A stretch of 58,574 nt of DNA from an archaeon. GTDB taxonomy: Archaea > Nanobdellota > Nanobdellia > Woesearchaeales > ARS49. Positions 9,672-45,972 of this stretch are shown here, piece by piece. Made by a program: the position numbers and the translations under genes. Location: contig JAGVQG010000017.1 in the NCBI GenBank assembly GCA_020051845.1, forward strand, positions 1 to 58,574, in the 5' to 3' direction. Every line of letters starts with the position of its first letter. Within the stretch, counting starts at the first letter, position 1. A model generated the notes under the pieces. The model saw only the letters and a list, made by a program, of their open reading frames with translations, was not told the origin of the DNA and did no database searches.

Positions 9672-9693
9672 GGATCGATAACTGTCAAGCGCC

Positions 9694-9701
9694 TTTAAAA
9701 A
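9694..9701 (-). promoter_or_regulatory. internal TATA box (TTTTTAAA on minus strand) splitting the 14-gene array
   Basis: It sits in the only real gap of the array (9672-9713), about 26 nt upstream of the 9671 ATG. Confidence 0.45.
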
Positions 9702-9713
9702 TGCAACGGTCGA

Positions 9714-10463: not shown

Positions 10464-10464
10464 G

Positions 10465-11027: not shown

Positions 11028-11060
11028 AGCATCACAACATCGCACGAATCTATATAAGGA

Positions 11061-11738
11061 TTACGTCGGATTGCCGTACTTGAACTTGAGCACGGCGTTG
11101 TTCGAGTCGATTGGAAGCTTCGTGGTACTATTGATGTACAACAGCGGGTCCAGTGGCTGGATATCGATCTGATACCAGCCAGGACCGGGCAACTTGCTGA
11201 TGTTCATGATTTTATCGTTCATCGAGCAAACGCCGCCATCGCAATATCTCGGGTACTCCTGGAAAACACACTCTTTCACGCGCGCGAACTGGAACCACTT
11301 GTCGACGGATTCCGGGCAATACCTTACCCTGACCTGGGGAGGCACTTGCTTATCCGGCGAACGGGACACATACTGATCCCAATAGATGACGATCGGCAAC
11401 ACTTCCACGACATCGAAGTCAACCTCGGCCAATCTCATCATGTTCGTACTCGCCTGGGTCGTCTGTTCGGCTGGATCGACCGCCTTTGTATTCACCTTAT
11501 TCCCACCGGCCATCACATTGTATATCGAAACGAAACCTTTCCGGTTAGGAGTCGCCGGTGCTGTCATGGGAGGGGTCGGATCCGCCTGCTTGAGATGCAG
11601 CCTTGTCGCCACATCATCCGAGGTGCTCTTGGCCATCGCGTACAGCTTGTTATTCGAGAAAATGGCGATCAGCACAAGGATCACCACTACGATAACGCCG
11701 ACCAAAAGAGCCTGGTGTTCAATGCCTCGCTTGTCCAT
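11061..11738 (-). CDS. prepilin-like N-terminus protein, 225 aa
   Basis: The track start is TTG; I use the ATG at 11736-11738. N-terminus MDKRG/IEHQALLVGVIVVVILVLIAIF. Confidence 0.62.
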   Translation of the reverse strand: MDKRGIEHQALLVGVIVVVILVLIAIFSNNKLYAMAKSTSDDVATRLHLKQADPTPPMTAPATPNRKGFVSIYNVMAGGNKVNTKAVDPAEQTTQASTNMMRLAEVDFDVVEVLPIVIYWDQYVSRSPDKQVPPQVRVRYCPESVDKWFQFARVKECVFQEYPRYCDGGVCSMNDKIMNISKLPGPGWYQIDIQPLDPLLYINSTTKLPIDSNNAVLKFKYGNPT

Positions 11739-11875
11739 CAAACACCCATGGCGCCCCTGATCGCGTCAAGGACATCGGGAAACTTACCAGTCACCATACC
11801 TATTATCGCAAGAACAACCAAAAGCACAACAACAAAAAGAATCACGTATCCAAGGTTGTCAGTAATCCAGGTCAT
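11738..11875 (-). CDS. unlisted 45-aa single-TM micro-protein
   Basis: Hand translation gives MTWITDNLGYVILFVVVLLVVLAIIGMVTGKFPDVLDAIRGAMGV. GGAG lies about 6 nt upstream. Its stop overlaps the next ATG (TGATG). It falls below the ORF-track length cutoff. Confidence 0.4.
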   Translation of the reverse strand: MTWITDNLGYVILFVVVLLVVLAIIGMVTGKFPDVLDAIRGAMGV

Positions 11876-11917
11876 GGTCTTCTCCAGTCAGGTTTTGTAT
11901 ATAAATTTATTTTAAAT

Positions 11918-12775
11918 TCAGGTGACGAATTGCAAAGGACCTGCCCTTCCCTCAAGGCGGCTGCACTTCAGCGCAGGTATATCCTCATAGGGCCACAGGA
12001 CCGTGCCTGCGACGAAATTCTGGTTGTAAAAGTGAGGTGAGATGAACATGTTGGTCGTGAATCCTGCTCCGGCTCCTGCGCCGGCCGCTATCACCAAGAA
12101 AGGAGTCGCTGTGCCACCGGTTACGAGGACCGCGCCCGCCGCAAGCGCTGTGCCGCCGGCAGTGATCAGATATCCTGTCCACTTGTCCACGTTCTTCTCC
12201 GCGACGAACATCACGGCGAGCGGTCTGGACGTGTCCAGAGTGTCCTGGCTCGCAATAGGGCTCCTTCGATATTCATCGACGACCTGAGGCGTGCCTTTGG
12301 TGTTGAAAAGATATTCATAATAGGTAGCATCCTTTCCCTTGGCGGTCGTCTTAAGCAGATATTCCCCGAAATCCTCCAGTTTGGCAGGCTTCGTGAACTC
12401 AATGCGAGAGCAGACGACACAATAGGAACCTGTCTCTATGTCGAACAGCTTCACCTTGCCCTCGCCGAACTGCTCCCAGCAAGATGCCATCTCGCTCGCC
12501 ACCAACGCCTTCTGCTTCTCAGGATCGTCCTCGTCAACCTTCATCTGCTTGGTCGTGCAACGCAGGTCGACGACTGTGGTGGGATTGATCATGCCGATAA
12601 GGGACTGGCTGCGCACGCTGGAGACACACTGCTCCTTCTCGCCGACGCTGGTCGAGATCTTCCCTGTCTGCGAGAGGAATATCAGAAGGACCACGCCCGC
12701 GACAAGGATAAGAACTATCCCGAGGATCGTCCCCCACATCGCCTCTTCAGCTTTCTTCGCCATTTTGTCAACCAT
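11918..12775 (-). CDS. 285-aa envelope protein, paralogue of 12782..13639, with an extra Gly/Ala-rich C-terminal TM
   Basis: N-terminus MVDKMAKKA/EEAMWGTILGIVLILVAGVVLLIFL. Shares the block EMAxCW..GEGK...F......CV.C......F..FG.YL.(T).....TY..YL with its neighbour. Confidence 0.65.
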   Translation of the reverse strand: MVDKMAKKAEEAMWGTILGIVLILVAGVVLLIFLSQTGKISTSVGEKEQCVSSVRSQSLIGMINPTTVVDLRCTTKQMKVDEDDPEKQKALVASEMASCWEQFGEGKVKLFDIETGSYCVVCSRIEFTKPAKLEDFGEYLLKTTAKGKDATYYEYLFNTKGTPQVVDEYRRSPIASQDTLDTSRPLAVMFVAEKNVDKWTGYLITAGGTALAAGAVLVTGGTATPFLVIAAGAGAGAGFTTNMFISPHFYNQNFVAGTVLWPYEDIPALKCSRLEGRAGPLQFVT

Positions 12776-12781
12776 CGATAC

Positions 12782-13639
12782 TCAATATAACGTGTCGCAA
12801 GGCGGCCTCAGGTCTGATGGCCAACCATAAACCGCCGCGTTCGGCCTGTCCTTGTAAAACACACTAGTCAGCAGATCAGAGTCACCCTGCAGATATGTTA
12901 TGACCATATCATCCTTGAAAAGATAGATGTCATGGGCGTTCACATTCTCCTCGCGCCCGCCCTGGGTGCGCTCCTCGCCGACGATGTCCTTGTATACATA
13001 GGACATTATCACCGAATCATAGGAGCTGAACTTGGCCTCGAACTTCTCGCGCTCAGGACGCAGATAATCGAAATAGGTCCTACCATCATCCATCTTGGTG
13101 TCCTTCAAGTATTGGCCGAAGCCGTTGAAACCGACACCACCCACCTTCTTGAGGAAGCTCGGGTCGAAGTGCACGACGGCGCAGGTCACGCAGCGATTGC
13201 CGCTGTAGAGCGTGCGCGTCTTGAAAGGATTCTTCTTACCCTCACCCCAAACGCGCCAGCAGATAGCCATCTCCTGCGCCATGGAATATTTGGCCATCTC
13301 CATCAACACCTCGTTCTCAGAGGGCTTCTGGTTGCCCGACTTCTGCAGACGCCTCGCAGCAGTGCCTGTCGACAGGTATTTCTCGGGGGACTTCGTCCTT
13401 ATGCTGTTGCGGTAGACGCCATCATCCTTGATGATGATCATCTGCGTCGGGCACTGGATCGTGACAAGATTGCCTATGGCCGCTGTGCTGGCGGCATCGA
13501 CGGTCGCCTCGCAGGCCTGGATGTCGGTGCCTTTCTTGACCGAAGCCTCCAGGTTGTATTGCCAGGCGAACAATGCTATGGCTGTGACTGCCAAGATGAT
13601 GAGCCCGATAAGGAAAGGATGGACATAGCCCTGCCTCAT
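12782..13639 (-). CDS. 285-aa envelope protein, paralogue of 11918..12775
   Basis: MRQG/YVHPFLIGLIILAVTAIALFA. Shares the Cys/Trp block described for its neighbour. Confidence 0.65.
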   Translation of the reverse strand: MRQGYVHPFLIGLIILAVTAIALFAWQYNLEASVKKGTDIQACEATVDAASTAAIGNLVTIQCPTQMIIIKDDGVYRNSIRTKSPEKYLSTGTAARRLQKSGNQKPSENEVLMEMAKYSMAQEMAICWRVWGEGKKNPFKTRTLYSGNRCVTCAVVHFDPSFLKKVGGVGFNGFGQYLKDTKMDDGRTYFDYLRPEREKFEAKFSSYDSVIMSYVYKDIVGEERTQGGREENVNAHDIYLFKDDMVITYLQGDSDLLTSVFYKDRPNAAVYGWPSDLRPPCDTLY

Positions 13640-13773
13640 CCTGCCACCAACATACCCCTGTTTATCATCATGTAGAACAGGATAATCAGAGCCACGAGCA
13701 GGACCAGCGTGACTATCATGGCGAAAGTCGAACGGGTGATCGCTTTCCTAGACTTGGATACAGCAGATGCCAT
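13636..13773 (-). CDS. possible 45-aa single-TM micro-protein
   Basis: Internal ATG of track ORF 13636..13869 gives MASAVSKSRKA/ITRSTFAMIVTLVLLVALIILFYMMINRGMLVAG. It overlaps the upstream gene by 26 nt and has an ATGA overlap with the downstream gene. Confidence 0.35.
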   Translation of the reverse strand: MASAVSKSRKAITRSTFAMIVTLVLLVALIILFYMMINRGMLVAG

Positions 13774-13999
13774 CTTCAATAGGTGCCTTTCTTCCATCAT
13801 CGCAATTCGGCGATGGGACTGTCGCCGAGTTAGCATTCGGGCAGGGGTTTCCGCGCTTGACGCACTCACCCTTGCACTGGCTAAGGCCCTGCGTGAACAC
13901 CTTGCCGCGCCCCAAGAAGATGATCGTCAGGACCAGCAGCACAATCAAGGCTATGGCTATGACAACGATGACATTAATCGACATATCCCCTTTCCTCAT
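13748..13999 (-). CDS. 6-Cys mini-pilin-like protein, 83 aa, ends ICCIQV
   Basis: MRKG/DMSINVIVVIAIALIVLLVLTIIFLG followed by C-x3-C-x6-C-x12-C-x12-CC. ATGA overlap with the upstream paralogue. Confidence 0.68.
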   Translation of the reverse strand: MRKGDMSINVIVVIAIALIVLLVLTIIFLGRGKVFTQGLSQCKGECVKRGNPCPNANSATVPSPNCDDGRKAPIEDGICCIQV

Positions 14000-14250
14000 T
14001 TGGGAAGCGCACAGCAGGTCTGTGACGCGCCGCCTGAAGTCTTAGGGCACACCCAGATGTTGTACTCGCCGATGCCTGCCGGACACGCGCCGACTACGCA
14101 CTGACCGCCCTGGCCCTCGCAATCCAGGCTCTTCTGTGAGAAGACGCCTGCTCTGCCAAGGAAAATCACCGACAGAACGACAAGCACAAGCAGCGCGATG
14201 GCTGCCACGATGATCACATTGATGGAGATGCCTTGTCCTTTGGAATTCAT
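13996..14250 (-). CDS. 6-Cys mini-pilin-like protein, 84 aa, ends TCCALPK; first gene of the array
   Basis: MNSKG/QGISINVIIVAAIALLVLVVLSVIFLG followed by C-x6-C-x4-C-x11-C-x10-CC. AGAGGTG SD 8 nt upstream. Confidence 0.7.
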   Translation of the reverse strand: MNSKGQGISINVIIVAAIALLVLVVLSVIFLGRAGVFSQKSLDCEGQGGQCVVGACPAGIGEYNIWVCPKTSGGASQTCCALPK

Positions 14251-14325: not shown

Positions 14326-14802
14326 TCACGACGAGCCAGGCGCAACCACATCGACAAGCAAGGGGTCGCTGAGGAAAGCCTCCCGCTTGATATCGTCTAT
14401 GACGAAGAAGACCTGCTTTGACTTGATGTCGAACTGGCGCTCGGTCTTGTCCATGAAATCCTCAAGATCGTGCAGATCACGGAATACACAGTCGGCACAG
14501 AAGTCGAAGCCGTTGTTTATCTTGAACAATGAATTCACAGGCAAAGCCTTCGAAAGGTAGTCCCTCAAAGCATCCCTGGACTTGGGATCAGAACGCATCA
14601 GGATGGTGGCTCTCGTGTGGAAACCCAACTTCGAGAAGTCAAGCAGCGCCGTGTTCCTGACGATAAAAGTGCCGGCATAAATCTTCAGCCGGTCATAGAT
14701 CGTCGAGATGGGCACTCGCGCAGACTTGCTCATCGCGGTCAGACCCATCCTCGAGTTCTTCCGCAAATGACTCAACAGCACCAAATCACGTTTGTTTACC
14801 AT
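14326..14802 (-). CDS. Lrp/AsnC-family transcriptional regulator
   Basis: N-terminal HTH (DLVLLSHLRKNSRMGLTAMSKSARVPISTIYDRLK) plus a C-terminal RAM-like domain. GGAGGT SD. Confidence 0.8.
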   Translation of the reverse strand: MVNKRDLVLLSHLRKNSRMGLTAMSKSARVPISTIYDRLKIYAGTFIVRNTALLDFSKLGFHTRATILMRSDPKSRDALRDYLSKALPVNSLFKINNGFDFCADCVFRDLHDLEDFMDKTERQFDIKSKQVFFVIDDIKREAFLSDPLLVDVVAPGSS

Positions 14803-14953: not shown

Positions 14954-15868
14954 ATGCAAAGAAGCGTCATACGGCTAGCAGGCAAGACATTCGTCGTGAG
15001 CCTACCAAGCAAATGGTGCAAGGCAAACGGCGTGACCAAGGGAGCCTTGCTGGAAGTCACACCCCATGGAAGGACACTACTAGTGGGAAGCCAAGGACCC
15101 AGCCATGACAAGCTGAAGCTGGCCTACGACGGCCACGCTGACGGCATCAAACCCCTCCTCACATCAGCGTACAAACGAGGATATGACGAGATCGAACTCG
15201 GCATCGGACCGGGAATGATGCGGCAGATCCAACGCACCATCGATGAAGAACTGGTGGGATTCGAGATAATCAACCAGGGCAAAAGCCACTGCACGATCAG
15301 GACCGTGACGGACGAACGCGAGGAAGAATACGACCAGATAATGCAACGCTGCGTCCACATACTGGGCGACATGCTCGAAAGCGGGCTTTCTGCGCTCAAA
15401 TCCAAGAAATGGGCTGAACTCGAGGAATCGGCGCTCTCCGAGCGGACGCTCGACAAGCTCACAAACTTCGCAAAACGCGTGCTCAACAAGAAATTCAGCG
15501 GCGACGCAGATTTCGCTTTCAACTACGGAATCCTGCGCGGAATAGAACAGACATCGGACGTGCTCGAAAACACATATGTCACGTGGGCAAAAGCAGGCCA
15601 CGCGACACACGACGAGATCGTCTTGTTCGAGGATGTATGCAAGTACGCGAAGACACAACTCGCGCTGATCCAATCACGCTCGCTGACGCACCCTTCATCC
15701 GGCAAGAAAATACTACTGATGCAGGCAGCGGTGCTGATCGAGAAAGGCGGACACGGAGCTATCATCGGCCATCATCTAAGCGAAGCGATAAACGCGCTCG
15801 ACAACATGGCCGGCCAAGTCATAGGTCTCAGCCTAGGGCAGACCGCAACGAGCAAAGATAATCCTTAG
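14954..15868 (+). CDS. AbrB/SpoVT-domain plus PhoU-like helical-domain regulator
   Basis: N-terminus IRLAGKTFVVSLPSKWCKANGVTKGALLEV is a swapped-hairpin AbrB-type motif. The rest is helical with a PhoU-like pattern. The upstream region is AT-rich and multi-TATA. Confidence 0.6.
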   Translation: MQRSVIRLAGKTFVVSLPSKWCKANGVTKGALLEVTPHGRTLLVGSQGPSHDKLKLAYDGHADGIKPLLTSAYKRGYDEIELGIGPGMMRQIQRTIDEELVGFEIINQGKSHCTIRTVTDEREEEYDQIMQRCVHILGDMLESGLSALKSKKWAELEESALSERTLDKLTNFAKRVLNKKFSGDADFAFNYGILRGIEQTSDVLENTYVTWAKAGHATHDEIVLFEDVCKYAKTQLALIQSRSLTHPSSGKKILLMQAAVLIEKGGHGAIIGHHLSEAINALDNMAGQVIGLSLGQTATSKDNP

Positions 15869-18773
15869 CCAACCCCTTCTCATTAGGCAATCTATCGACG
15901 ACAGACAACACGTTGTCGATGAAACCACGGACGACAGGCCCCCTGCTCGGCTGATCGGCCGCATAGGCCGCGAATGAAGCCGCGCGAAACGGAGCGACGC
16001 CGATCATATCCTGCACGAGAGAGCGCGACTCTCCAGATGCCAATGGCTTGCCCGACTCCTTGCGACCGGCGACATAGGCGCCGACGCAACGATCAAGCAG
16101 GATCTCAAGAAGAGGCAATGCACAGGCCTCGCGCTGGAAAATCAGCTTGCACAACTCGTTCGGCGGATGGGTGCTGCCATGCGGCTGGAAGTCGATAGCG
16201 ACGACGCCATCCTTAGTCCTTATCCAGTTCTCAGGATGCGGATCCTTCTTGAAAACAGCGGCGTACTGAATGTCCGCTCCCTTCGCCATGCGAGACAATA
16301 CCTCAAGCCCGGACAGCGATGAAAGCGCGGCAAGCCTTGACGCCCGTTGCGGAGAGAGCGAATAGTCATCGTTGTCCTTGCGTCGGGGCTCGAGAAGACC
16401 GTGTATCATCCCAAGAGCGCGGGCTGCTTCGACGTATGAATCGACCTCGACACATCCTGACAAAGGGCTGCCTGACTCGAAAAGCAACGGAAGGACGTGA
16501 GCGCCGGCATGTTCTCGGACCGACGACAGAACAACAGAGGTCTTCACACCGGCAGCGGACAGCCTATCGTGGGCATGACGCGTCAGATGTTCCTCGGCGT
16601 CAAGACCCTGTTTGTCTCCACGCTTGAGAAGCACGGTCGACTTCAAGAATTCACTGCCTCCAAGACGATGGACATCATAATCACCTATCCGCTCCCAGAC
16701 CGGATTTCTTTCAAGCGCGAGCTTGATCGCGTCGCGCAGGGTATCGCCGGCCATCGAATCATAGCCTGCCGCGGAAAGCAACAGACCCTGCATTATGCCG
16801 AGCTCAGGACGCTCCTTTGGGATCGGGCCGGAAAGGATCTTCCTGGACAACAGCGGAACCCGTGAATAGAATCCACATTGCAGCGCGCTGAACTGGGCTT
16901 CGATCATCTCGCCCAAATCCGCACGCCTCAAAGCCTTGCGGGAATCAAAATATGAGTGTTGAAGCAGAAGCATACGCTGTGGAAGACGCAACGCATCGAA
17001 AGGATCAAAGAGGGCATGATTGTCATCAGGATGCCGCATCGCCTCCTTCAACGACAAAGCAGCGACATCATAATCCTTGTCAAAAATCCTCAATCTGGCC
17101 TCGCACAGGGCGGCAGAACGCGTCGATGGATGCATGATATCGCGGAGAGTCTCGAGCTCGCCCTTCTTCAGACCGACACACATCAAGCCCTTCGCCGAAA
17201 GACCCAACAAACCAAGATATCGCCTGAATCTCGGCGACCGGACAGACCGCGCGTTCGTCAAAATATGGTCTGCAGCGGCGACGTAGGTCATAGATATCAT
17301 GGCAAGGCCGACTGAAAAGGAATACAAAGCAGGACCGTGCAAAGACTTCAACATCGCGCGATAATAGCCGCCATGCATCGAGTCGATCAAATACGAAGCG
17401 GCAACACAGGAGGCGGTCGCGACTGCAAGAGGGTGCTCGACAGCGACGTCGAAAACACCCTTCTCTCCAGAATCCTTCAAATCACGCAAGTGCCTATCGC
17501 GACGCCTGTAGAGCGAGAACAACAACCAAGGCAGGAATGGGACCAACGAAAGACCACCGGCCAAGGCGACCTGAAGGTTGGACATGACTGTTTTCCTGTC
17601 GAATCCAGACCCGCCATCAGGGACATAACAATCGAAACCGCCATCCCTGATCCTCACACAGTCAAGACGAGCGAGCATGGATGCGAACTTATCACTATAG
17701 ATGTACAACCCATCAGAACCCCAACCGCAAAGCAGATCCAAACCGCCGGGATTCTCGAAAGCAGGACGCGTGGAGCGGGCGGCACAATCGAATAACGAGA
17801 CATCGACGCTTTTCATGAGATCGATGGCTTCGTTCGTGGACACCCTCTTCCCGGAAACATCAGGGATTGCCTGGAACGCAAGGATATCGTCGACAGGAGA
17901 CCAGGCCATCGAAACACGAACATCTCCTGAACCCAAGACCATCTCATCCAAAGAACGCAGATCGGTGAGGCGCAACATCCTCTCCTTCTGGTTTGCGCTG
18001 GAGACTGTCGCAAGATATCTACCTGACGGTGAAAGCTCCGAGCGCTCGACCGTGCCAAATGCATTTTCCGTGGTCCGAGCGCGTTTCGACTCCCTGTCGA
18101 CAACAGCTATCCTGCCGAGACCATGCAACACGATCGAATCAAGGGTCAAAGATGGATCGCGCCATTGGTCTCCTTCGACCTCGACAGCATCCATCGCCTG
18201 TTTTTCATCGGCGTCATAAACACGCACAGAGGTCTTGCCTTCTTTTTCGACACAAAAAGGCAATTCTTTGCCTGACCATCGACCGACAGAGACAGCGGCT
18301 GCAGAAAAGACAGACTCCCTGGTCTTGGCGTTGACCATATTCAATCGACCGCTCTTGCCATCGTGAACAGCGACAAAAGCGGCATCACGAGAGATGAACG
18401 CAGAAGGCGACTCTGCGCAGGCAATCTCGACAGAATCATTTGGTTTCCTACCCACATCGACCAGGCAGACAACACCGCCATTCTTGACAACCAAATAATC
18501 CGAGGACACATCCAGGATTTTGTCAGCTGCGCACCTCCTTGTGCCATGGCGCCTGCCGGCATCGATCTCTTCGACACTGCCACCTGCAACACGGAAATAC
18601 GCCCCTTTGACAACATCATGCCTGCTGCCTGTGAACTCGTAGGGATACGGCCATGAACAATCCTTTTGTGAAGGTTGCTTAAGGTTGCAGATCAGATAAA
18701 CACCTGCGCAAAGAGCGCCTGCGCCGACGGCGAAAGAAACAGTCTCCATCAAAGAACGCAATCCCCTACCCAT
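15828..18773 (-). CDS. 981-aa membrane protein: N-terminal anchor, beta-propeller-like ectodomain, TM cluster, helical region, C-terminal protein-kinase-like (APH/PKL) domain
   Basis: TolB/WD-like strands (SPSGRYLATVSS, MAWSPVDDILAF). TM candidates LQVALAGGLSLVPFLPWLLFSLY and ALYSFSVGLAMISMTYVAAA. C-terminal FKKDPHPENWIRTKDGVVAIDF resembles the H.D.HP.N ... IDF catalytic/Mg loops of APH-like kinases. Confidence 0.6.
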   Translation of the reverse strand: MGRGLRSLMETVSFAVGAGALCAGVYLICNLKQPSQKDCSWPYPYEFTGSRHDVVKGAYFRVAGGSVEEIDAGRRHGTRRCAADKILDVSSDYLVVKNGGVVCLVDVGRKPNDSVEIACAESPSAFISRDAAFVAVHDGKSGRLNMVNAKTRESVFSAAAVSVGRWSGKELPFCVEKEGKTSVRVYDADEKQAMDAVEVEGDQWRDPSLTLDSIVLHGLGRIAVVDRESKRARTTENAFGTVERSELSPSGRYLATVSSANQKERMLRLTDLRSLDEMVLGSGDVRVSMAWSPVDDILAFQAIPDVSGKRVSTNEAIDLMKSVDVSLFDCAARSTRPAFENPGGLDLLCGWGSDGLYIYSDKFASMLARLDCVRIRDGGFDCYVPDGGSGFDRKTVMSNLQVALAGGLSLVPFLPWLLFSLYRRRDRHLRDLKDSGEKGVFDVAVEHPLAVATASCVAASYLIDSMHGGYYRAMLKSLHGPALYSFSVGLAMISMTYVAAADHILTNARSVRSPRFRRYLGLLGLSAKGLMCVGLKKGELETLRDIMHPSTRSAALCEARLRIFDKDYDVAALSLKEAMRHPDDNHALFDPFDALRLPQRMLLLQHSYFDSRKALRRADLGEMIEAQFSALQCGFYSRVPLLSRKILSGPIPKERPELGIMQGLLLSAAGYDSMAGDTLRDAIKLALERNPVWERIGDYDVHRLGGSEFLKSTVLLKRGDKQGLDAEEHLTRHAHDRLSAAGVKTSVVLSSVREHAGAHVLPLLFESGSPLSGCVEVDSYVEAARALGMIHGLLEPRRKDNDDYSLSPQRASRLAALSSLSGLEVLSRMAKGADIQYAAVFKKDPHPENWIRTKDGVVAIDFQPHGSTHPPNELCKLIFQREACALPLLEILLDRCVGAYVAGRKESGKPLASGESRSLVQDMIGVAPFRAASFAAYAADQPSRGPVVRGFIDNVLSVVDRLPNEKGLAKDYLCSLRSALG

Positions 18774-18838: not shown

Positions 18839-19363
18839 TTATTGGCAAAGCTTCAGAACAAGAGTCAGTGTCTGACCGCCTATCGGACGAGGACGCGTTA
18901 TCTTCTGGAAACCTGCCGTGCACCCCCCAGGAGGGTTCTTGAACTCGATCTTCTGGTCGTTGATCTTCTCCTCTATCTCAAATACATACTTTCGGCCCCA
19001 GGTGTTGAGCGTGCTGTTGAGCATGTAGCCTATGGTCGCGTTCGCGTAAGCGCAACTGTCGCCGGCAGGGATGACAATGGTCGCGACACCTGCTTTCGTG
19101 ACCTCGATCTCGTCGCACTGGAAGGAAGCGCCTGTCGCACAGTCCTTGAGCATAACCGAAAGCGGCACGCCCTTGCAGACCATCGTAGTCTCAAGCATCG
19201 TGTCGAGAAGGTTCGCTCCGAGCTGCACGTCACGCGCGTTCTGCACAGGATTCTCCTGCACGTTGAAGAAAAAGAAACGCAATGCGAGAAGGATGCCCAT
19301 CAGCACGATGACCATTATTATCGCAAGCCCGAGAAGCTCCATCTGTGCGCGCCTATTTCGCAT
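18839..19363 (-). CDS. prepilin-like protein, 174 aa
   Basis: MRNRRA/QMELLGLAIIMVIVLMGILLAL. 11-nt overlap with the upstream gene. Confidence 0.68.
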   Translation of the reverse strand: MRNRRAQMELLGLAIIMVIVLMGILLALRFFFFNVQENPVQNARDVQLGANLLDTMLETTMVCKGVPLSVMLKDCATGASFQCDEIEVTKAGVATIVIPAGDSCAYANATIGYMLNSTLNTWGRKYVFEIEEKINDQKIEFKNPPGGCTAGFQKITRPRPIGGQTLTLVLKLCQ

Positions 19364-19880
19364 ATTGAGTCACCTCAATGTAGCCGAAAGCGTAGGTGCC
19401 TTCTGTAGACTGGCTGCCTGTGGCATTGAAAATAAGTATGGGAACCTGCATCTTGCTCGACTCCTTGTATTTAGGCAATGTATTGTTGTAGAGCGTGACC
19501 TGCCTGACGGCTGTCGGTGGAACGGCATTACGAGCGTAGATCTGCGTGACAGTGACCGTACTCCAACCGAAAACAGGGAAGTAAAGCGCGGAGATCGCGG
19601 AAGACTGAGGATTACTGTCATCAAGGACCGACGCGAACGCGCTCAACTTGCTCGCATCTATGCAAGCCTCCTCCTGGATGCCGGCTATGGCGCAATCCAG
19701 CTCTGGAAGGAATGAAATCTTCTGCGCCAGGCCGAACATGTGAAGCTGGCTCGCGCGCGCCAACTCCCTGTTCACCGACGTCTTCTGGATGCCGAAATAG
19801 AAGTTCACGCCGAAGATAAGCAGGAAGGCGAACACCACCATCACGGCTATCGACTCGAAGAGCTTTATCTGGGCTTTCAT
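19353..19880 (-). CDS. prepilin-like protein, 175 aa
   Basis: MKA/QIKLFESIAVMVVFAFLLIFGV. Confidence 0.68.
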   Translation of the reverse strand: MKAQIKLFESIAVMVVFAFLLIFGVNFYFGIQKTSVNRELARASQLHMFGLAQKISFLPELDCAIAGIQEEACIDASKLSAFASVLDDSNPQSSAISALYFPVFGWSTVTVTQIYARNAVPPTAVRQVTLYNNTLPKYKESSKMQVPILIFNATGSQSTEGTYAFGYIEVTQYAK

Positions 19881-19881
19881 C

Positions 19882-20967
19882 TCAGTACACCGTCGGACAA
19901 CTCAGACGCAACAACTTCTCATTGGAGGCGGCAAGGCTGTCCGCCGCTATCTGGAGTATATTGAAGTCAGGGGAGCTTTCGTCGACCACGGTCTTATGGG
20001 CGAACTTGATGATCGTCGGCAAAGGACCGTCATTCGCAGCGTCAAAACCACCCTCCAGATCGTTCGTCTTGGTGATGACCGTGTACTCTGCACCACACGC
20101 GGGGTTTTTTGTGGTGTCTTTCAGTTCGACAGCCCTTTGCTGATACACCCTGCCCACACCCTCAAGACGCTTGAACGCCGTGATTGCATTGCACGAGTAA
20201 TCCTCCATGTCCTGCGCCATTATGGCGCCGAAAAGCATCTCGTCTCCGAAAAACGCAGTCATTATCGTCTGACCACTGTCGTCAACCGCGTTCTCCTTCT
20301 CGATCATGTTCTTGTTCCTCTTGTAGAACGTGAGATCGTTGGTGGAAGCGCTGACAACCACCACGTGGACATCGACGTCCTTGAACTTTGAGTTCATGAC
20401 GGTCTGGATGGCAGGCGCATCATTGCCGAGCGTCACGAAAACCACACGGCTGTATTTCTCGTTGGTCGCGTCCTTGACATCACTGATCTGCTCGAAACGC
20501 ACATCGGCAGGCATCGCCGCCTTTATCCGGTCAAGCACAGGATCGTTGCCGACCAGGTAAATCTTGACGAAATCATTTGTGATGAAGAGGAAGTTGGTGG
20601 CGCGGAAAGGCGCCTTCCAGTCAAGGGTCCAGAGCTTCGCGTCAGCGCCCTCGACGGTGTATGGCGAAAATATGGAACGATCGTTGAACGGGATGCTGAA
20701 GCGGCCGAACTTTATCGAACAAGAACAATCAGCACAATCGAAGTTAAGACCCAGCTTAGGCAAAGGCACTGTCTGGATCGTGTCCTTGGATTGGAGCGCG
20801 GCTGTCGTTATCGCGTCGAAGTCGTTCTGCAGACGTATCGCCGCCTTGTCCGCGGAAAGCTGGCGCTGAGTGTTGGCGACCTTGAAGAAAAGAGCGAGTA
20901 TGACAGCACCTGCTATGAGGACGAAGATCCAGTTGAACTGGACATCAAGCTGTGCCTTGCGCTTCAT
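19882..20967 (-). CDS. prepilin-like protein, about 361 aa
   Basis: [28 protein letters not shown]. The ATG at 20965-20967 forms an ATGA overlap with the upstream stop. An alternative ATG lies 6 nt upstream at 20973. Confidence 0.68.
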   Translation of the reverse strand: MKRKAQLDVQFNWIFVLIAGAVILALFFKVANTQRQLSADKAAIRLQNDFDAITTAALQSKDTIQTVPLPKLGLNFDCADCSCSIKFGRFSIPFNDRSIFSPYTVEGADAKLWTLDWKAPFRATNFLFITNDFVKIYLVGNDPVLDRIKAAMPADVRFEQISDVKDATNEKYSRVVFVTLGNDAPAIQTVMNSKFKDVDVHVVVVSASTNDLTFYKRNKNMIEKENAVDDSGQTIMTAFFGDEMLFGAIMAQDMEDYSCNAITAFKRLEGVGRVYQQRAVELKDTTKNPACGAEYTVITKTNDLEGGFDAANDGPLPTIIKFAHKTVVDESSPDFNILQIAADSLAASNEKLLRLSCPTVY

Positions 20968-21509
20968 TGCCATGGCGATACGCGCACCGCATTACCAAGC
21001 CCCTCAAGCCGCAATACCACCGTGCCTTGGTCGACAGGCTCGCAGAACCAGCGCTGGTCGCTCTGCTTTTCCGGATCGCTCGAAGCCTGGATGTCAGGAA
21101 GCAGTATGTTCTTCGGAGCGCTTGGCTCGAAGAAGACATTGTCGCCGCCGGTCTCATACACCTCATAGATCAGAGAAGCGTTCTCGGGCAGGCCTGCCAG
21201 CTCGGACATCTCATTGAATTGCGGCTTGCCCTTGACATCGACTTGCGGGTCCTTGTTGCCTGTGACGATGCAGATCTTCTTGTACCTCATCGGCAGCCCT
21301 GCGAGCTCGACCTTCTTCACAGAACCATAGCTCAGACTGATGCTCTTGACCTCGGACTTGAGCGTGCTCGTGAAATCGATGAACGCGACCTCGTTGCCGC
21401 GTTGACTGATCCCCTGGATCGCCTTGTATCCATAACCGAGGATCAGCACGAAGATTATACCCGCCAGGATCAGCACGAAAACCTGCCCTATGATCTGCGC
21501 TTTCCTCAT
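20964..21509 (-). CDS. prepilin-like protein, 181 aa
   Basis: [32 protein letters not shown] overlap with the stop of the giant gene. Confidence 0.68.
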
Positions 21510-24500
21510 TTCTTCCCTCCCTTGGGCTTCTGGATGATCTTGTTGAGCTTGACCTGAGCCATGGACTTGCCAGTGGCATAGGCCTCGACCTCGTGCTCGA
21601 GCTGGTCCTTATGCTGAGAATAGTATTTCGCCGTGATGCGCAGCTTCTTGAAAAGCTCCTCCGCATCTTTCGACGAGAGCTTACCAAGGCGCAGCAACCG
21701 CAGCTTCCTGAGCAGATCCTTACGGTCCTTCGCCGACAATTGCGACAGCGCGATGTTGCCCAGGTTCGCAAGGACATCCTCCTTTGTCTCGACCTTATTC
21801 TCATCGACCTTTGAACCTGGCTTGTTCATCCCGAACTCCGCCGCCAGCTTGCCGATCGCGCCCTTCTCTCCGAGCGGGCCTTTAACATGCATATGCTGGC
21901 CCTTGCCATCCTCGGCGATGCGCCTCTCGAGCTCCTTCAACTTGGAGAACTCCTCCTTCTCAGGCGCCTTGAGAGAATCAAGTGAGACGTAATCATCCTG
22001 CTTCTTGGAACCTGCTCCCGGTGTTCCGGCCACTGTCCTCTTCTGCTGCTGACCAATCCGCTGGGCGATGCGCGCACGCGCCTCCTGCAAGCGTTGCATG
22101 AGGTTCGTGGACAAACCACCCTCCTTGGCGGTCTTCTTGAACCTCTCAGGATGCCTCTTCTGGTATTCCTTGTAGCCGAAATAGCCACCCACAAGCAATG
22201 CCAACAAGACTATCAACAATATCCACAGCCAGAGCCAGGAAGTCGGATGGCTTGCCGGATCAAGAGGATCGGTGCCTGCCTCGACCTCGACACCATCATT
22301 GTAACCATCAAGGTCGGTGTCGGCGTTGTTGGGGTCGGTGCCTGCCTGCCATTCCTGCATGTTGGTAAGACCGTCACCGTCAGGATCGGCGTCTGCCGCG
22401 GCATCGCCGGAGCATTCGATCTTGTCGCCGCCGCCCACGAAGCCGTTCTTGAAACGCCAGGAATCAGGTATGTCGTCACCGCAGGAATGACGCTGGTCGA
22501 TCGAACAACCATCGGCGTCGACCTCGGCGCCCTTCGCAGTGCCAGGACACTTGTCCGTACCGTCAGGCACACCGTCGGCGTCACGGTCACCCTCGACACC
22601 GCAGGAAGCGTCGCCGGGCTCGCACTTGCGGCACACGTTGGCCCCACAGACAAGACCCTGGGCGCAGTCAGCGTCGATCAGGCAAGCCTGGCCCTCGATG
22701 CACTTGGAAGAGCAGGCGCCGCCGCAATCGACATCGGACTCTGTGCCGTCATGGACCGAGTTGAAACAGGGATTCGATTGGACGCAAATATTGTTGATGC
22801 AGGTGTTCGACTTGCAGTCCGCGCTCACCAGGCAGGCCTTGCCGATATCACACTTGGTCGAACAGGAGCTACCGCAGTCGACATCGGTCTCATTGCCGTT
22901 ACGCGTACCATCGGCGCAACCGACCGGAGCGCAACGCGAGACATTGCCCGTCTTCTTGCAATTCCTGCTCTTGCAGTCCGTGTTCACCTTGCACAGCTTG
23001 TTGTCGTCGCACTCCATACACTCGGCGCCGCAGTCGATGTCCGTCTCTGTGAACAACTCGAGCGCCTTGTTCTTGCAATGCGACGGAAGCTTGGAGAGGT
23101 TGATGGTCACGCCATTGCTGTCGTTGGCAGGACCCACCATGCCACCCTCGTTCTGCGGCTTTACCGTGAAGAAATAGGAAGCGCCCTCGGTGAGGTTGAG
23201 ATTGCGGCCAAGCTGGTCCTTAGTCAGATAGAACTTGCCACTGTTCGGCAGCCTGCCTTCGCAGTTGCTGTTCGAGGAATTCGTGCCGTTCATGCAGTCG
23301 ACAATGACCTTGCCGCCGGTCTTGTCCTTGACAGTGTAGAAGTACGCCGTGACAGCGGTCTCGTCGTCCTTGCCCTGCCATTCGGCCTGCAGCTTGTCAG
23401 GGAAGTAGCTTATCTCCTTGTCCTCGGACAAGGGCCCGTCGTCACTGACCTTGACCATGTAGGGCGCTGTGTTGTCTATGACAAAAAGGACGGTGATCTT
23501 GGCTGTCTGCGCCTCCTGAATGCCGCCGACATCGATGACCGCAGTGCAAGTGACGTCGATGGCATTCGGGCCAAGAGTCCTATTGACAAAGCGCCTCGTG
23601 TGGCCTATGCCGTCGGCAGAAGCCATCGGATCATAGTTGACTCCTGCGACACATGTGGCCTTCTTGTTGGTCTCGACACCGATATCCACTGTGGTGTTGC
23701 TGAACGCAGACTTTGTCCTACTGACCACGGTGAGCGTCTGGTTGAGGTCCATGGAGACAGAAGTCGCGCCGAAGACCGGGCCAAGAAGCGCCTCGTTGAA
23801 GCAGGCGACAGCGTACCACTGGGTCTGATTGACCTTCTTGAGCACAGCAACGCTGACATTCACGTACACGTTCTGAGATACGGTCGGTGATAGATTGAAG
23901 TTCGGGAACTCATTGGTGAATGTGGCGTAGAAGTCCTGTGCTGCCTTGCCACTGACATTGACCTGCGAAGGGCTGTCTATCTCCCTGTATTTGCAGAATA
24001 TGTTCTCATCACCCTGAACCTCCAATTTGGTCACGAGCTGACCGTCGGTGGTCTGGGTTATGGGATTGGGATTCGTTGTGACAAGCACAAGTTGAGGAGC
24101 GGTCAGATCGACCTTGAGAGAGCACTGCTTCTGGACGGAATTGCCGCTATCATCGTCCTTGCACCAGATGAAGATCGTCTTCGTGCCAGCATCCTCCTTG
24201 ATGCCATCATAATCTTTCTTGAGATGCTCGAAACCGTCAGCCGACTTCGTGGTGGTGTAGAGACCGTTGAAAGGCAATGATGCGCCTGTCGGAAGATCGG
24301 AGAAGCGGCAGTTGGAGGGTTCACTCGTCTCGAAGATCACGTCGAACGGCGATATCTTCGAGGAGACGCCGAAGCGCGGCTGCTTCAGGCCGACAAAAGG
24401 ACTGCCTGCTGATGTCGAGAACTTGCTCGAACCATAGCCCTCGTTCCCTGCAAGGTCCATCGCCTTGGCCGAAAGCATCTTGCGACCACCCTGCAAAGTC

Positions 24501-27076
24501 AAAGGCTTGAGCAGCCACACCTTAGCCGGTGGACCGCTCATAGACAACTGCGTGTCCTGCGGAGCGAAAAGGCCGCAGTTGGTGCCGAAAATCACCCACT
24601 CTGTCAATGTGAGCTGCTTGATCGTCACTGGCTCGCTCGCATTGACGCCCATCGTGATGCCAGACTCATTCGTCTTTGTCCCATCCTTCGGGATAAGCGT
24701 CAGCGACGGAGCGACTGTATCGACGTTGATCGTGATGGGCTGGGGATTGTCCAATGTCGCGCCCTTCGCGTTGGCCGCGTCGAAACCCAAGGTGTAGATG
24801 CCGTCAGGCAAAGGCGCGCTCGGTGATATGGAATAGCTCGTCGCCGAAGCAGTGACGGCAGGATCGGGCGACACCACAAGGCTCACGCCACCCGACGGAC
24901 CGCTCATCGCGGCCTTGGTCAACTTCACAGGCGAGACGAACGTGACAATGATCTTGAGTTGAGGAGCGCCGGACCTGCCACTGCCTGCGTTGGTGTACCA
25001 GGGGCCCTTATCCGGATACTGGGTTCCTGGCGAGACATTGATGCCCTTGATCGTCGGACCAAGGCAGCCCTCGCAGATCAGCAACGGGATGGTCCTGACA
25101 ACCTCCACATTGTAGCTCGGATCCTCGGTATAGTAACGAAGTTCATACTGGCCCTCGGTGAGATTGAATAATGTCGTGTCATCCTGGGCAGGATCATCGA
25201 CCACACCATCACCCATGCAAAGCAGGTTGTAGCCGGTCGACTTCCAACCGCTCTTGTCATCACGCACGCGGGCGTCTGTGCAATCCGTCGTGTCGCCCTT
25301 CGGACGCACGCAATACCACGTCAAATAATTATCCTTGAACATCGAACCGTCGCCGCACTCGATCTGCGCGGACTGATCCAAAGGCTTGCCCTGAACCGCG
25401 ACAGGCGACGCAGGAAGCACGCCGGAAATCTTGTCGACAAGGCGCGCCACTATGAAACTCGTCACGCCAGACTTGGTCTTCGACGTCAAAGCCGTCTGCG
25501 GCGGGTAGTAATCCTGCTCGCAGGCCTTCTGCAAAAGCGCCGTGCTCGCGCCAAGGCAATCCGCAAAGGTCGCACCATTCGGCCTGCCGTCCGCGTTCTT
25601 GTGACATGCGCCGTTTATCCAGTCGCACACAGGGATCTTGCAGATGTTGGACGTGCTCATCCTTGAAAGTGAATTGTCGGCGTTGATCGCGATGCCGCCC
25701 GCAGGACCGCCGCAATCAGGCTCCTTCGGGAAGATAGAACAATCAGCCTCGGCACAGCTCTTCGCGCTATCCAGCTCAGGGGTAGGACCTGGCACGAAGA
25801 AGCACATGTTGTCCTGGGTCGAGAGAGCTGACGCGACCTCGGGCGAGCATTTGTTGAACACATCATTGTAGGCGTCCTTGTTGGGCGCATTCTTGCTACC
25901 AGCCATGTTGCAAAGCGCGCAATTGCTCGACGTGGAATCCTTGCAGACGCCTACACCGAGACCCTCAAGACCAGGCACAGGGGACCAGGCACAGGTGCCC
26001 TTCAGACCGCATGGGTTCTTTCCGCACACGCGGCTCGACTTGTAATCATAGCACACCATCGACCCGTCGCACTTGTAGCATTCATCGCCAGAAGCTGATC
26101 CGCGGTCGAGGAAGCAATAGGTCGGAGTATCGACAGGACCCTCACAATTCTGTTCGTTGATGTTCAAGCCGAAGACGTCGCTCGACGCGGGCTTGCATTC
26201 GGAAGGCACGATGCATTTCACCGCCTCTGCGCCGCGCTTGAAACACTGTTTGTCAGGAGGACACTGCAAACCCTTGACCACGATGTTGAACGGATTGCAC
26301 GATATCGCGCCATTAAGCCTGTCGGAGAAAGCCAACTTCACGGCAGAATCATAGTCCTTGTTGAAAGTCACATCCTTGCCATAGGAATCCTTGTAGCCCT
26401 TGTCGACCAAGTAATTCTTGCGCTTGTCGTTGTCGAAATGCGCGGGCGAGAGGCAGAACTCCTGCTCGTCGAAGACATCAAGGCACTCGATGTCACCAAG
26501 CATGCCCTGGCCAGACACATCATTCGACCAGCCCTGGATGTAATGCGCCTTGACCTTGTAGATGTACTTCGTCTTCCAAAGCACGATCCTCTTGCCAGCA
26601 GTATCAAGACCAGAATCCTCAAAGTAAGAGTTAGTGGTATCGCCGATCTCCAAACAGTTGCTTCCTGCGATATCACAACGCGTGACACGCACATAATCAG
26701 GAGAACAGCTCGCGTCACCGGGTGACCACTCGATGCGCATGATGTCCTTGCCCTTGACGCCACGCACGCGCACGTCCTTGACATCGGGCTTTCCTGCCGC
26801 ACAGGCAGGAAGCGTGGGAGATATCGACTGGCAAAGCGTGATGCAGTCATCGCCGATCTTCTCCGGCGTGGCTATGTCAGGATAATTCACGCAGTCGCCG
26901 GTGCCGCACTCGCCAGCAGGCCTGAAAGCGTCGCTGCACGCCGAGCTCGACTGAGCATTGCAGCAGCAGACAGGACCATCAGTGGTCTGCGCAGACGCAG
27001 GAACGACGAGGAGCGCGACAAGCGCGATCACCAGCAGGAAGCCGAGCTCAATTGAGCGGCAAGAGCGACTTGGCAA
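21506..27076 (-). CDS. giant (1856 aa) Cys-rich type-I membrane surface protein / putative adhesin
   Basis: TTG start 7 nt after GGAGGTG, with no in-frame ATG before the signal peptide ([22 protein letters not shown]). FN3/Ig-like segments with D-x-T/V-A-P linkers ([23 protein letters not shown]). Three Cys modules, Asp-rich TSP3-like repeats, [25 protein letters not shown] and a 221-aa Lys/Glu-rich tail. Confidence 0.85.
22241..22600 (-). repeat. Asp-rich thrombospondin-type-3-like (Ca-binding) repeats encoded just outside the TM segment
   Basis: [61 protein letters not shown]. Confidence 0.6.
22601..23077 (-). repeat. three tandem ~45-50 aa Cys-rich modules (protein-level repeat)
   Basis: [31 protein letters not shown] / [32 protein letters not shown] / [33 protein letters not shown]. 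Confidence 0.7.
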
Positions 27077-28442
27077 AGATCTCCACCTCCTGGTCGTCGA
27101 TGTTATGTGGAACGTAAATCTCCTTCTCTTCTGCCATTATGTAAACGGAAACCTTCTGGAGAGCGCTCTTCTCAGACGGGCTGAACTTGTGCTTGTCTCC
27201 ACCAGCGACAAGATCCGTGCCGCCAGCGCGCATCGTCATGAAAACTTCATCCTCATCAGGATCGAAGGAGACAATCTCTCCCAGACTTGAATTTGCGGCA
27301 TAGTTTGTAGGAGGCCACACGCCACCTTTTGGATGAGGAACTGTGCCATCGCAATCATCAACATTGAAAACCAAATGGTCGCCTTCCCTAGTGACGTTCG
27401 CCGCGTAACCACTCTGTAACGCGCAGAGCTGGATTTGAAGCGTGGTAGGGTTCGGAATGTACGACAAAGCAGGAGGCCTGTTGTGACGCATCACACGGAA
27501 CTCGTACGGATTGCCATCTATCTTGCTCGCCGCGTCCGTGAAAACGAGCAAATCATCGCCTGCAATGTTGTCCGACGCGTTGCGGACGATGCTGACATGG
27601 ATGGCATCACCGAAATAGGTCAAAGGATCATATGTTATGTCGGTCGCGTCAGCGTCGATGACCTGCTTGGTGACATTATGCACCTTCTTGAGACGCACAG
27701 GCATCTTCGCGGTGAAAGTAGGCAATGCTGTCTCGCCAGAACCGTCCTTCATCTTGACGACCAAAGACGCGTTGAGAATGAAAGTCGTGTCCTCGTCATT
27801 GAGCATGACCTGGACAACCGAGTGCGGCGGCGTTATGTCGACCTGGACGAACTTGGACCAGTCGAGGCAGCTGTCGACGTTCTTCTGTACAGCGGCGACA
27901 AGCTGGCTCTCCATCGAAGGCTGGGCAGGCTGCAGAGTCGTGCCGTTAAGGACAGGCAACCGGTTGATGCCATAGTAACCCTTGTAGGTACGACCGGAAG
28001 AACAACCCGGAGCGGCAGGGATCGGCTCCATCGATTCTTTGCAGAATGGAAAACTCTTCCAAGGATAGGTCGGCACGTACGATGAATACAAACCCTCACC
28101 CTCTGGAGCGTAGAGCCCGTACCACACATCGAAATCATCGTAATTGAGAGAGTTCACACCAGATATGAGATCGCCGCGCGGAGTAAGGCCGCCCTGATTC
28201 TCGGAATAAAGGACACCACCCTGCATGCCGATCTGCTTGACAGCGTCATTGGCAGCGGCCTTCAGGCAGCCGGTCACATATTCCCTGATAGGTTGAACGA
28301 TCTCCCGAGAGAGCTGAACGCCCTTGACAGCGTCTGTCTGGCGAGTCTCGGATTCCGAATTGACGATATAGTACCCCACTCCTGTCATGATTACCACAAC
28401 CAGCCCTACGATGATCATCAACGAGAGTTGTCCTTGCTTCAT
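27048..28442 (-). CDS. prepilin-like large protein, 464 aa
   Basis: [29 protein letters not shown] overlap with the upstream gene. Its 3' end overlaps the TTG start of the giant gene by 29 nt. Confidence 0.7.
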
Positions 28443-29962
28443 GGCCGCAGCTTCGCCGTGAGATCGCGCCAGGCGCCAATTATCGTTGTCTGGTCTGCGT
28501 TACGGAGCTGCGTGATAATTACATCCGATGACTGACCGGGCGGCGTGCAGGTCAGATCCTTGGTGTTGCTGGTGATGAAACCGCAGATGTTGAAAGTGGC
28601 GCCTGCGTAGTGCACGCCAATGACATCCTTGAAGTCATCCGCGGGTTGCTGCTTCTTCGTGTCATTCAATGGCTGCACTGCGAGATGATACTCTATCACT
28701 CCCCAGAGCTCCTTGCCTGCGTTCTGCGCAGCGTAGAATACATTGATGTTGTTCCTTTTACCGAAGAACGCGAAATCCTCACCACTCGTACCTGGAGCGG
28801 GCTCCCTTGCCTGGATTATGACATCCTTCTGCTTGAGAAGCTGCTGGTTAAGCGCATCCATGGCAGAGCCGCTGGCAGGAGTGACACCCTGCGAGTACAG
28901 GACGATGTTAAGGTCCTTGTTGTAGTAGATGTTCGTGCTGACACCCTGCGAGCATTTGGTGAACGTGTCAGAACCGCCGACCACATTGTCGCAGACGGTC
29001 TTCAAAAGATTCTTGTCGATGACCTTGATGAATGTGTTGTCGTCATTGATATTGTTGTTGAGCGAGGTACCGACAAGAGAGACGCCACCGACGCGCAACA
29101 GGCAGACGTTGTTGTGGCAGGAACCGGTCTTTCCGCCCGATGTCATCTTGCAATCGTTTATGACTGCCGGGCTGTCCTGGCCGAACACGCTGTCTATCGT
29201 GTCGCAGAATATCGAATACGGCTGACCTGCGAAAGACTGTTCTTTTATACGCAGCATAAGCAACGCGATGAATTTGGTCCTTGTCGTCCAAGTGCCGGTC
29301 TCATCGCACAGGTGGTCTCCGATGAACTGCCGCGACTTGATGCACGCGGGCGGAGTGGTGCTGTACTTCTCAGGCATGTCATTGTTCTGGATGTTCTGCA
29401 CGCCTGACGTCGGGAAGACAAGACCTGGCTTCACGACACAACGCTTGACAGTGTCTGTCTCAGGGCAATAGCCAAGATAGTCGTTGTCCCAGGTGGTCTT
29501 CGGAATCAATGCCTTCCAATCACCGTCGATGCAACGATAACCCTTGCCGCCAGCCATCACAGTGGAAGATTTCGGATCATTATACGCCGTGTCAAGGCTC
29601 TGGTTGCTTATGATATCGGTGCCGTTCCAGCAAGTGCCCACATCACAGCAACTGGCCTGCATGCCTTCCGGCGCCGGTGGAATGGTGAAACCCACTGGCG
29701 CTGAACATTCGTGCATGACCGGCTTCGTGGTCTTTTCCCACATCACCCAATTACCATTGGGCGAGCACCAGTAAGCGTTGCCTGACGTGCTCGAAGTGCT
29801 CGCGCCAGAACCAGAAATTGACGTAGGACCAAGAACGTCGCACTTGCTCTTGCCGACCACCAAAGGCCCGCCAGGCTTGGTGGGATCGGTCTCGGCTGCT
29901 ATTACGGCGACCGCAAGAACCGCAATGATTGACAAAACCAGGAGCGCTTTGGAGATTCTCAT
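28439..29962 (-). CDS. secreted Cys-rich protein, about 507 aa
   Basis: The track start is TTG. The ATG at 29960-29962 makes an ATGA overlap with the upstream stop. Sec-type signal MRISKALLVLSIIAVLAVAVIAAETD, with many Cys. Confidence 0.72.
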   Translation of the reverse strand: MRISKALLVLSIIAVLAVAVIAAETDPTKPGGPLVVGKSKCDVLGPTSISGSGASTSSTSGNAYWCSPNGNWVMWEKTTKPVMHECSAPVGFTIPPAPEGMQASCCDVGTCWNGTDIISNQSLDTAYNDPKSSTVMAGGKGYRCIDGDWKALIPKTTWDNDYLGYCPETDTVKRCVVKPGLVFPTSGVQNIQNNDMPEKYSTTPPACIKSRQFIGDHLCDETGTWTTRTKFIALLMLRIKEQSFAGQPYSIFCDTIDSVFGQDSPAVINDCKMTSGGKTGSCHNNVCLLRVGGVSLVGTSLNNNINDDNTFIKVIDKNLLKTVCDNVVGGSDTFTKCSQGVSTNIYYNKDLNIVLYSQGVTPASGSAMDALNQQLLKQKDVIIQAREPAPGTSGEDFAFFGKRNNINVFYAAQNAGKELWGVIEYHLAVQPLNDTKKQQPADDFKDVIGVHYAGATFNICGFITSNTKDLTCTPPGQSSDVIITQLRNADQTTIIGAWRDLTAKLRP

Positions 29963-44909: not shown

Positions 44910-44934
44910 GAAATGTTTATATAAAAAGGCGATA

Positions 44935-45882: not shown

Positions 45883-45972
45883 CAAGTGCAGGGCTTTGAA
45901 CCCGCACGATTTCTTTGTAATGACGAATTCCATAGCGAAACATTTAAAAGAGACTTTGCTCTTGGTCGTCTT

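Follow-up and report, generated by a model that had tools for sequence, protein, structure and literature searches.

Class III signal peptide-like genes conserved beside a giant surface protein gene: a candidate attachment apparatus of Woesearchaeota

The present analysis concerned a stretch of 58,574 nucleotides (nt), referred to hereafter as the window, which corresponds to contig JAGVQG010000017.1 of an archaeon of the order Woesearchaeales (ARS49; assembly GCA_020051845.1), and in particular four consecutive genes of its reverse strand (A to D, positions 18839-21509), located immediately downstream of a gene for a giant surface protein of 1856 amino acids (aa). Based on their leaders, cleavage motif and N-terminal helix, the products of A-D look like class III signal peptide proteins, that is, proteins resembling type IV pilins, and the gene cluster to which they belong probably builds a pilus-type attachment structure. 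In the reading that we favor, to which we would give about an even chance, B, C and D would make up the minor pilin core of a type IV-like filament particular to this lineage, and A would form an accessory adhesin cassette together with the giant protein and with a fifth pilin-like protein of 464 aa, encoded upstream of it. No description of this cluster of A-D and the giant was found in the literature. The genes in question, in the order in which they are read, are listed below, with a slash marking the predicted cleavage site.

464-aa pilin-like gene, 27048-28442, reverse strand: MKQG/QLSLMIIVG; the fifth pilin-like gene, which pairs with the giant.
Giant surface protein gene, 21506-27076, reverse strand: 1856 aa; Sec-type signal peptide; 87 Cys; TTG start codon, with a strong GGAGGTG upstream.
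Gene A, 20964-21509, reverse strand: 181 aa; MRKA/QIIGQVF; one N-terminal transmembrane (TM) helix; 2 Cys.
Gene B, 19882-20967, reverse strand: 361 aa; MKRKA/QLDVQFNWIF; invariant W13, G20, C259 and C357; C-terminal SCPxxY motif.
Gene C, 19353-19880, reverse strand: 175 aa; MKA/QIKLFES; invariant Q4, E9, C63 and C73.
Gene D, 18839-19363, reverse strand: 174 aa; MRNRRA/QMELLGL; Q7, E9 and G12 invariant in the alignment derived from the related loci.

The presence of four consecutive genes starting with [KR]-A-Q and a hydrophobic helix, as described in the initial annotation, was confirmed by the list of open reading frames (ORFs) and by their N-termini, and the overlaps reported there were also seen in the sequence. 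The stop codon of the giant and the start of A share an ATGA (21509/21506), as do the stop of A and the start of B (20967/20964), C and D overlap by 11 nt (19353-19363), and a single spacer base separates B from C. An alternative start of B, two codons earlier (20973), corresponds to the longest ORF. The giant, A and D are preceded by Shine-Dalgarno-like sequences (GGAGG/GAGGTG) at 6-8 nt from their starts. The tight spacing was maintained in a set of 89 loci collected from homologues of B, nine of them from a scan of a genome collection and 80 retained out of 460 relatives found in a metagenome scan, with median junction distances of -4 (giant-A), -1 (A-B), +1 (B-C) and -4 nt (C-D). A-D had been regarded as translationally fused to the giant and obligately co-translated with it; they are read in separate frames whose stop and start codons overlap, an arrangement which suggests translational coupling of A-D and the giant rather than either of those two situations.

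Only seven ORFs of the window had, near the N-terminus, the motif [KR][GAS]Q with a hydrophobic stretch behind it (1792 candidate starts, ORFs ≥70 aa, six frames), and four of these were the consecutive genes A-D. Given that four of the seven motif ORFs are adjacent, and that both the motif and the gene order are kept in the 89 related loci, this clustering is not attributable to chance. All four window proteins fit a FlaFind-type motif, with a short basic leader ending in [KR]-[GA] and a hydrophobic helix of approximately 20 residues. At the family level, position -2 was occupied by K or R and position -1 by G, A or S (mostly Ala or Ser), while Gln was found at position +1 in 48/51 members of family A, 72/73 of family C, 61/65 of family D and 16/18 of the family of the 464-aa protein, in which the complete motif [KR][GAS]Q was also present in 16/18. 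Moreover, the first 30 residues were the most conserved part of every family, with a mean top-residue frequency of 0.61-0.68 vs. 0.39-0.46 after residue 60. In each of A-D, a single TM helix is located at the N-terminus and the conserved Cys are even in number (including six invariant Cys across 83 database homologues of D), features that, like the conserved N-terminal segment, are typical of pilins. When the A, B, C, D and 464-aa families were compared with hhalign, similarity was confined to the N-terminal 20-70 residues, which ruled out that they are recent paralogues. The prepilin-like nature initially attributed to A-D was therefore supported by the leader, the small residue at -1 and the conserved N-terminal helix.

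Gene calling affects the visibility of these proteins in public data. The public record of D (P0224) consists of 158 aa starting at Met17 and lacks the predicted signal peptide, and exact look-ups of A and B in the public protein collection returned no record; public gene calls, of which P0224 is an example, use other start codons. Proteins whose signal peptides are truncated in this way escape pilin predictors.

The conservation of the gene order was analyzed by counting families with jackhmmer over every ORF of the 89 loci. The order giant-A-B-C-D was encountered repeatedly in contigs of Woesearchaeota/Nanoarchaeota. Genes C and D were located downstream of B in 65/65 loci, and among the 64 loci with enough flanking sequence, 58 had a gene of the giant family that ended at most 1.5 kb upstream of B. 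Gene A was present in 48/64 loci and was confined to those with a giant gene. The genetic link of the pilin-like genes to the giant that the initial annotation had proposed is thus sustained by the position of the giant just upstream and by the tight junctions, and the frequent full order was 984-like, 514-like, 464-aa, giant, A, B, C, D (the first two corresponding to secreted proteins described below). In 22/27 cases, a complete giant gene was immediately preceded by the 464-aa gene, and the pair of 464-aa and giant genes occurred twice, flanking B-C-D, in two loci (L071, 1748-14690; L078, 3-10106), which points to a modular, duplicable adhesin cassette. In the window, the 464-aa protein itself has Gln, not Lys or Arg, at position -2 (MKQG/Q).

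Six loci (L064, L065, L070, L072, L081 and L084) contained B-C-D without the giant and without A, which indicates that the giant is an accessory rather than an obligate partner. In all six, pilin-like genes of 85-132 aa, starting with [KR][GAS]QG[LMI][SP][LI]N..II, directly followed B-C-D; the core genes therefore do occur without a giant, yet always beside small pilin-like genes. One of these loci (L072, 3502-7227, reverse strand) also encodes a 1241-aa protein with a class III N-terminus similar to that of A (MKKRGQLEGEFFRYFLVIFIGV), possibly a modular pilin to which a large domain has been joined.

The giant protein comprises an Ig (immunoglobulin)-like region, three Cys-rich repeats and TSP3 calcium-binding repeats, followed by one TM helix (1613-1631) and a charged cytoplasmic tail of approximately 225 aa. 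Matches of the window protein to Ig-like families were weak and below threshold; among 25 homologues, Big_13 was significant in 8 and TSP3_bac in 15. The giant, searched as a single sequence, had no match among PDB sequences.

AlphaFold models were obtained for B and D, based on an alignment of 125 sequences and on the 83 database homologues, respectively. Both were predicted with high confidence, and in both an N-terminal helix of approximately 55 residues is followed by a globular, beta-containing domain, resulting in a "lollipop" architecture.

Model of B: pLDDT 93.7, pTM 0.88; helix 3-59, beta domain 64-139, alpha/beta region 143-224, helical bundle 241-354.
Model of D: pLDDT 91.7, pTM 0.75; helices at 4-33 and at 39-58, alpha/beta domain with a terminal sheet of four strands.

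In addition to the genes described above, a larger set of neighboring genes was analyzed. Together they make up a super-locus of approximately 26 kb (~6.5-33 kb of the window), which is a surface-structure locus specific to Woesearchaeota/Nanoarchaeota-type DPANN archaea. Its remaining components are:

Two secreted Cys-rich proteins (514 aa and 984 aa), 28439-32913, reverse strand: head of the conserved gene string.
981-aa membrane protein, 15828-18773, reverse strand: variable slot between D and the regulator.
AsnC/Lrp-like regulator, 14326-14802, reverse strand: between the two halves of the super-locus; weak AsnC_trans_reg match, with a Pfam annotation in locus L090.
Two tiny Cys-rich pilin-like genes, 13996-14250 and 13748-13999, reverse strand: directly after the AsnC-like regulator.
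Eight genes with N-terminal hydrophobic anchors (locus i, genes i1 to i8), 6568-13639, reverse strand: several with [KR][GA] motifs.

Among these, the two tiny genes are the best candidates for the major pilins, considering their size and conservation and by analogy with the 74-aa major pilin of Methanococcus. Their products, of 84 and 83 aa, start with MNSKG/QGISINVIIVAAIALLV and MRKG/DMSINVIVV, respectively, and the class III-like N-termini of the two proteins are MNSKGQGISINVIIVAAIALLV and MRKGDMSINVIVV. The small pilin-like family is large (at least 1362 clusters at 90% identity), its named members are all recorded as "hypothetical protein" from Nanoarchaeota or Woesearchaeota, and no Pfam match was found for it.

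The families of the 514-aa and 984-aa proteins cross-hit each other in jackhmmer searches, and neither protein had a Pfam match. The 981-aa protein had no homologue in the 89 loci and no Pfam match; in close relatives its slot is filled by an unrelated gene of 700-760 aa, and genes in this slot ranged overall from 700 to 980 aa. We take a C-terminal stretch of the 981-aa protein (DPHPENW...IDF) to be reminiscent of UbiB/ABC1-type kinase motifs. Of the 45 loci whose sequence extends at least 3 kb beyond D, 21 have an AsnC-like regulator at 2.5-4.2 kb downstream of it. Homologues of i1, i2, i4, i5 and i6 occurred downstream of D in many loci, i3 in L001 only, and i7 and i8 had no homologue in the 89 loci; since the i2-seeded jackhmmer profile drifted to a generic TM-helix profile (135 hits), the labels of i2 serve only as position markers. 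No Pfam or NCBIfam match was found for the genes of locus i.

The archaeal origin of the window is evident from its gene content, which includes RNase P p30, archaeal PheRS, TrmB, an aRF1/Pelota-like protein, RFC, FEN1, a histone, TFE, a tRNA-splicing endonuclease and RadA. Database relatives of A-D are recorded under names like "Candidatus Woesearchaeota archaeon" or "Nanoarchaeota archaeon", and an exhaustive search of representative sequences with B (E ≤1e-3) yielded 1281 clusters at 50% identity. Outside the super-locus, a second cluster of surface proteins (40864-46932, forward strand) encodes a 403-aa protein whose N-terminus combines KRAQ with a hydrophobic stretch, a multi-TM protein of 640 aa carrying an fn3-like domain, and three proteins with lipobox-like N-termini (LAGC, VTAC and VVGC).

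A mechanism can be proposed from these observations. A prepilin peptidase encoded elsewhere in the genome would cut after [KR]-[GAS], exposing an N-terminal Gln. B, C and D, which always occur together, would constitute a low-copy, equimolar core of minor pilins, whose conserved N-terminal helices would bundle and thereby prime or cap a type IV-like filament; the bulk of its subunits would probably be the 83-84-aa Cys-rich pilins of 13748-14250. The accessory adhesin cassette, consisting of the 464-aa protein, the calcium-binding Ig/Cys-rich giant and A, and present in 0-2 copies per locus, would be co-expressed with the B-C-D core by means of translational coupling and functionally attached to it.

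Several results weigh against this filament reading. No gene for a pilus ATPase, a platform protein or a prepilin peptidase was found in the 58-kb window, and the 89 loci had none at up to 10 kb from the cassette. Curated models of pilins and archaellins (Class_IIIsignal/DUF361, Pilin_N, arch_flag_Nterm) did not match A-D, and profile searches of the A, B, C and D families against PDB sequences retrieved no solved pilin. In Foldseek searches against the PDB, the best matches had E values of 0.019 for B (TM ≤0.2) and 0.16 for D (TM ≤0.32), with no pilin among the top 50 matches listed for each model. Regarding the motif, position +1 of family B was variable (V 21, Q 20, F 19 and I 11 of 85 sequences, and others), and the Glu at +5 was absent, with acidic residues at +3 in D, at +6 in C, at +2/+3 in B and none in A. 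Finally, a C-terminal TM helix with a cytoplasmic tail of 110-370 aa was present in nearly every giant homologue with a readable C-terminus.

The same data delimit what had been proposed from the sequence at the outset. An invariant Gln after the cleavage site holds for families A, C and D but not for B, where a different Gln (Q10, in xDVQFNW) is nearly invariant, and the suggested EppA-type consensus is followed as regards Gln at +1 in A, C and D but lacks the conserved Glu at +5 and Gly at -1. The resemblance to minor pilins or pseudopilins of the GspHIJK/PilVWX type was not recovered in the models, given that Foldseek detected no similarity of B or D to a solved pilin, pseudopilin or minor pilin; as far as the predicted structures are concerned, the head domains of both proteins are without known structural counterpart. 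The Pfam/NCBIfam scan was consistent with this result: no family fits any of the four proteins, with GspG as a match below threshold only (E 0.058), and in A-D, their neighbors, the small pilins and locus i there was nothing beyond the TSP3 and Ig-like domains of the giant. Likewise, no Pfam hit of any kind was obtained in 125 members of family B, and the pilin hidden Markov models (HMMs) were also unmatched in these, in the 83 homologues of D and in the small pilin-like proteins of the window. A separate scan for the Walker A motif of secretion ATPases (ORFs ≥50 aa, 89 loci) produced one hit, located in a protein of 181 aa, which was rejected as far too short.

The anchoring of nearly all giant homologues by a TM helix with a cytoplasmic tail, together with the lack of ATPase or platform genes nearby and the equimolar subunits suggested by coupled translation, could also be explained by a membrane scaffold that forms no filament. 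The five processed pilin-like proteins would then stay in the membrane, as in the bindosome idea for Sulfolobus, and their helices would pack round the TM helix of the giant, giving a collar or stalk by which the giant, as an S-layer-like protein or an adhesin, would be positioned at the cell surface; in fact, the large Cys-rich proteins with a C-terminal TM helix encoded in pilus loci were read as S-layer-like by Makarova et al. (PMC4858521). However, B-C-D are found without the giant, yet always with small pilin genes, and the very strong conservation both of the N-terminal helices and of the small proteins of 83-130 aa is typical of polymerising pilins. We consider such a scaffold unlikely. 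The literal model of the initial annotation places the giant at the opposite end of the structure: A-D would form a tip complex physically carrying the giant adhesin at the end of the pilus, as PilY1 is carried with FimU-PilVWX. The operon logic is indeed like that of bacterial clusters of minor pilins and PilY1 (PMC7541494), and both the linkage of the giant in 58/64 loci and the restriction of A to loci with a giant are in line with such a model. Nevertheless, a protein with its own membrane anchor, namely a C-terminal TM helix and a cytoplasmic tail, is a poor fit with riding the tip of an extended filament. Moreover, no PilY1, vWA or DUF2341 domain was found in the giant (Pfam scan, including the 25 homologues), B-C-D exist without it, and there is no similarity of fold to GspHIJK or PilVWX, all of which make the tip complex quite unlikely.

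A further possibility is that A-D are uncleaved type II signal-anchor membrane proteins, unrelated to type IV filaments, in which [KR]-x-Q would be merely topogenic. This would agree with the lack of a pilin HMM or fold match and of machinery genes nearby, but it would leave without reason the maintenance of a small residue at -1 and Gln at +1 across four non-homologous families, as well as the higher conservation of the TM helix with respect to the ectodomains. Furthermore, unless some step of processing or assembly is shared, it is difficult to account for their location next to members of a large family of tiny pilin-like proteins, and we regard simple signal anchors as very unlikely. The reading in which B-C-D would be the minor pilin core of a type IV-like filament, with the 464-aa protein, the giant and A as its accessory adhesin cassette, is the one retained here. 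A more specific version of it would be a DPANN-specific host-attachment organelle, in which B-C-D, with new folds, would prime a filament of the 83-84-aa pilins, and the 464-aa protein and A would dock the calcium-binding adhesin of ~1800 aa, whose TM helix and tail would couple binding to the cell interior. Stated in such detail the proposal is improbable, although, if true, it would represent the long-sought contact machinery of Woesearchaeota episymbionts.

The surface proteins of Woesearchaeota and other uncultured DPANN archaea are mostly annotated as "hypothetical". In this context, the cluster is a concrete candidate for an attachment apparatus of Woesearchaeota: it is large and widespread, its gene order is fixed, its pilin-like proteins have a processing motif in common, two of them have confident models without PDB counterpart, and it includes a clear candidate adhesin.

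Three kinds of known systems provide a frame of comparison. In bacteria, the pilus is primed by minor pilins together with PilY1, and these proteins are located at its tip (PMC7541494). The FimU-PilVWX-PilY1 systems, including the Myxococcus clusters, and GspH-I-J-K resemble the genes described here in that four to five pilin-like genes accompany a large non-pilin adhesin in a tight operon, and B, unusually large with its 361 aa, recalls GspK/PilX in size (PMC7541494). The proteins of the window have no sequence or fold homology to those of the bacterial systems, the giant is membrane-anchored and without PilY1-type domains, and the organism is a single-membrane archaeon.

The other two kinds are archaeal. 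In Methanococcus, the substrates of EppA are characterized by Gln at +1, Glu at +5 and Gly at -1, and the major pilin has 74 aa (PMC3875500), and in DPANN there are "system 1" machineries of the Epd-like kind, with numerous stand-alone pilins (bioRxiv 10.64898/2026.04.22.720090). Similarities with the Epd pilus of M. maripaludis (EpdA-E, MMP1685) include class III signal peptides with Gln at +1, several minor pilins per operon, a very small major pilin (here a candidate one), and pilin genes that may lie apart from those of the ATPase and platform. The present families differ from it in the lack of a DUF361/Class_IIIsignal match, in position -1, which is often Ala or Ser instead of Gly, in the missing Glu at +5, in their unrelated globular domains without known fold, and in the giant TM-anchored protein embedded in the operon. 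Archaeal pilus loci are also known in which several minor pilins are accompanied by a large protein that is rich in Cys and has a C-terminal TM helix as its anchor (PMC4858521). Among them, the loci of Thermoproteales clades 4B and 4G, like the super-locus of the window, combine small class III proteins with a large protein that has a signal peptide, a C-terminal TM helix and many conserved Cys (PMC4858521); those loci, in contrast, include ATPase and TadC genes, and both the protein families and the lineage (DPANN in the present case) are different. The families reported here have no Pfam/NCBIfam model or named homologue, and the kind of system to which they belong is already known, namely that of class III signal peptide proteins encoded beside a large surface protein.

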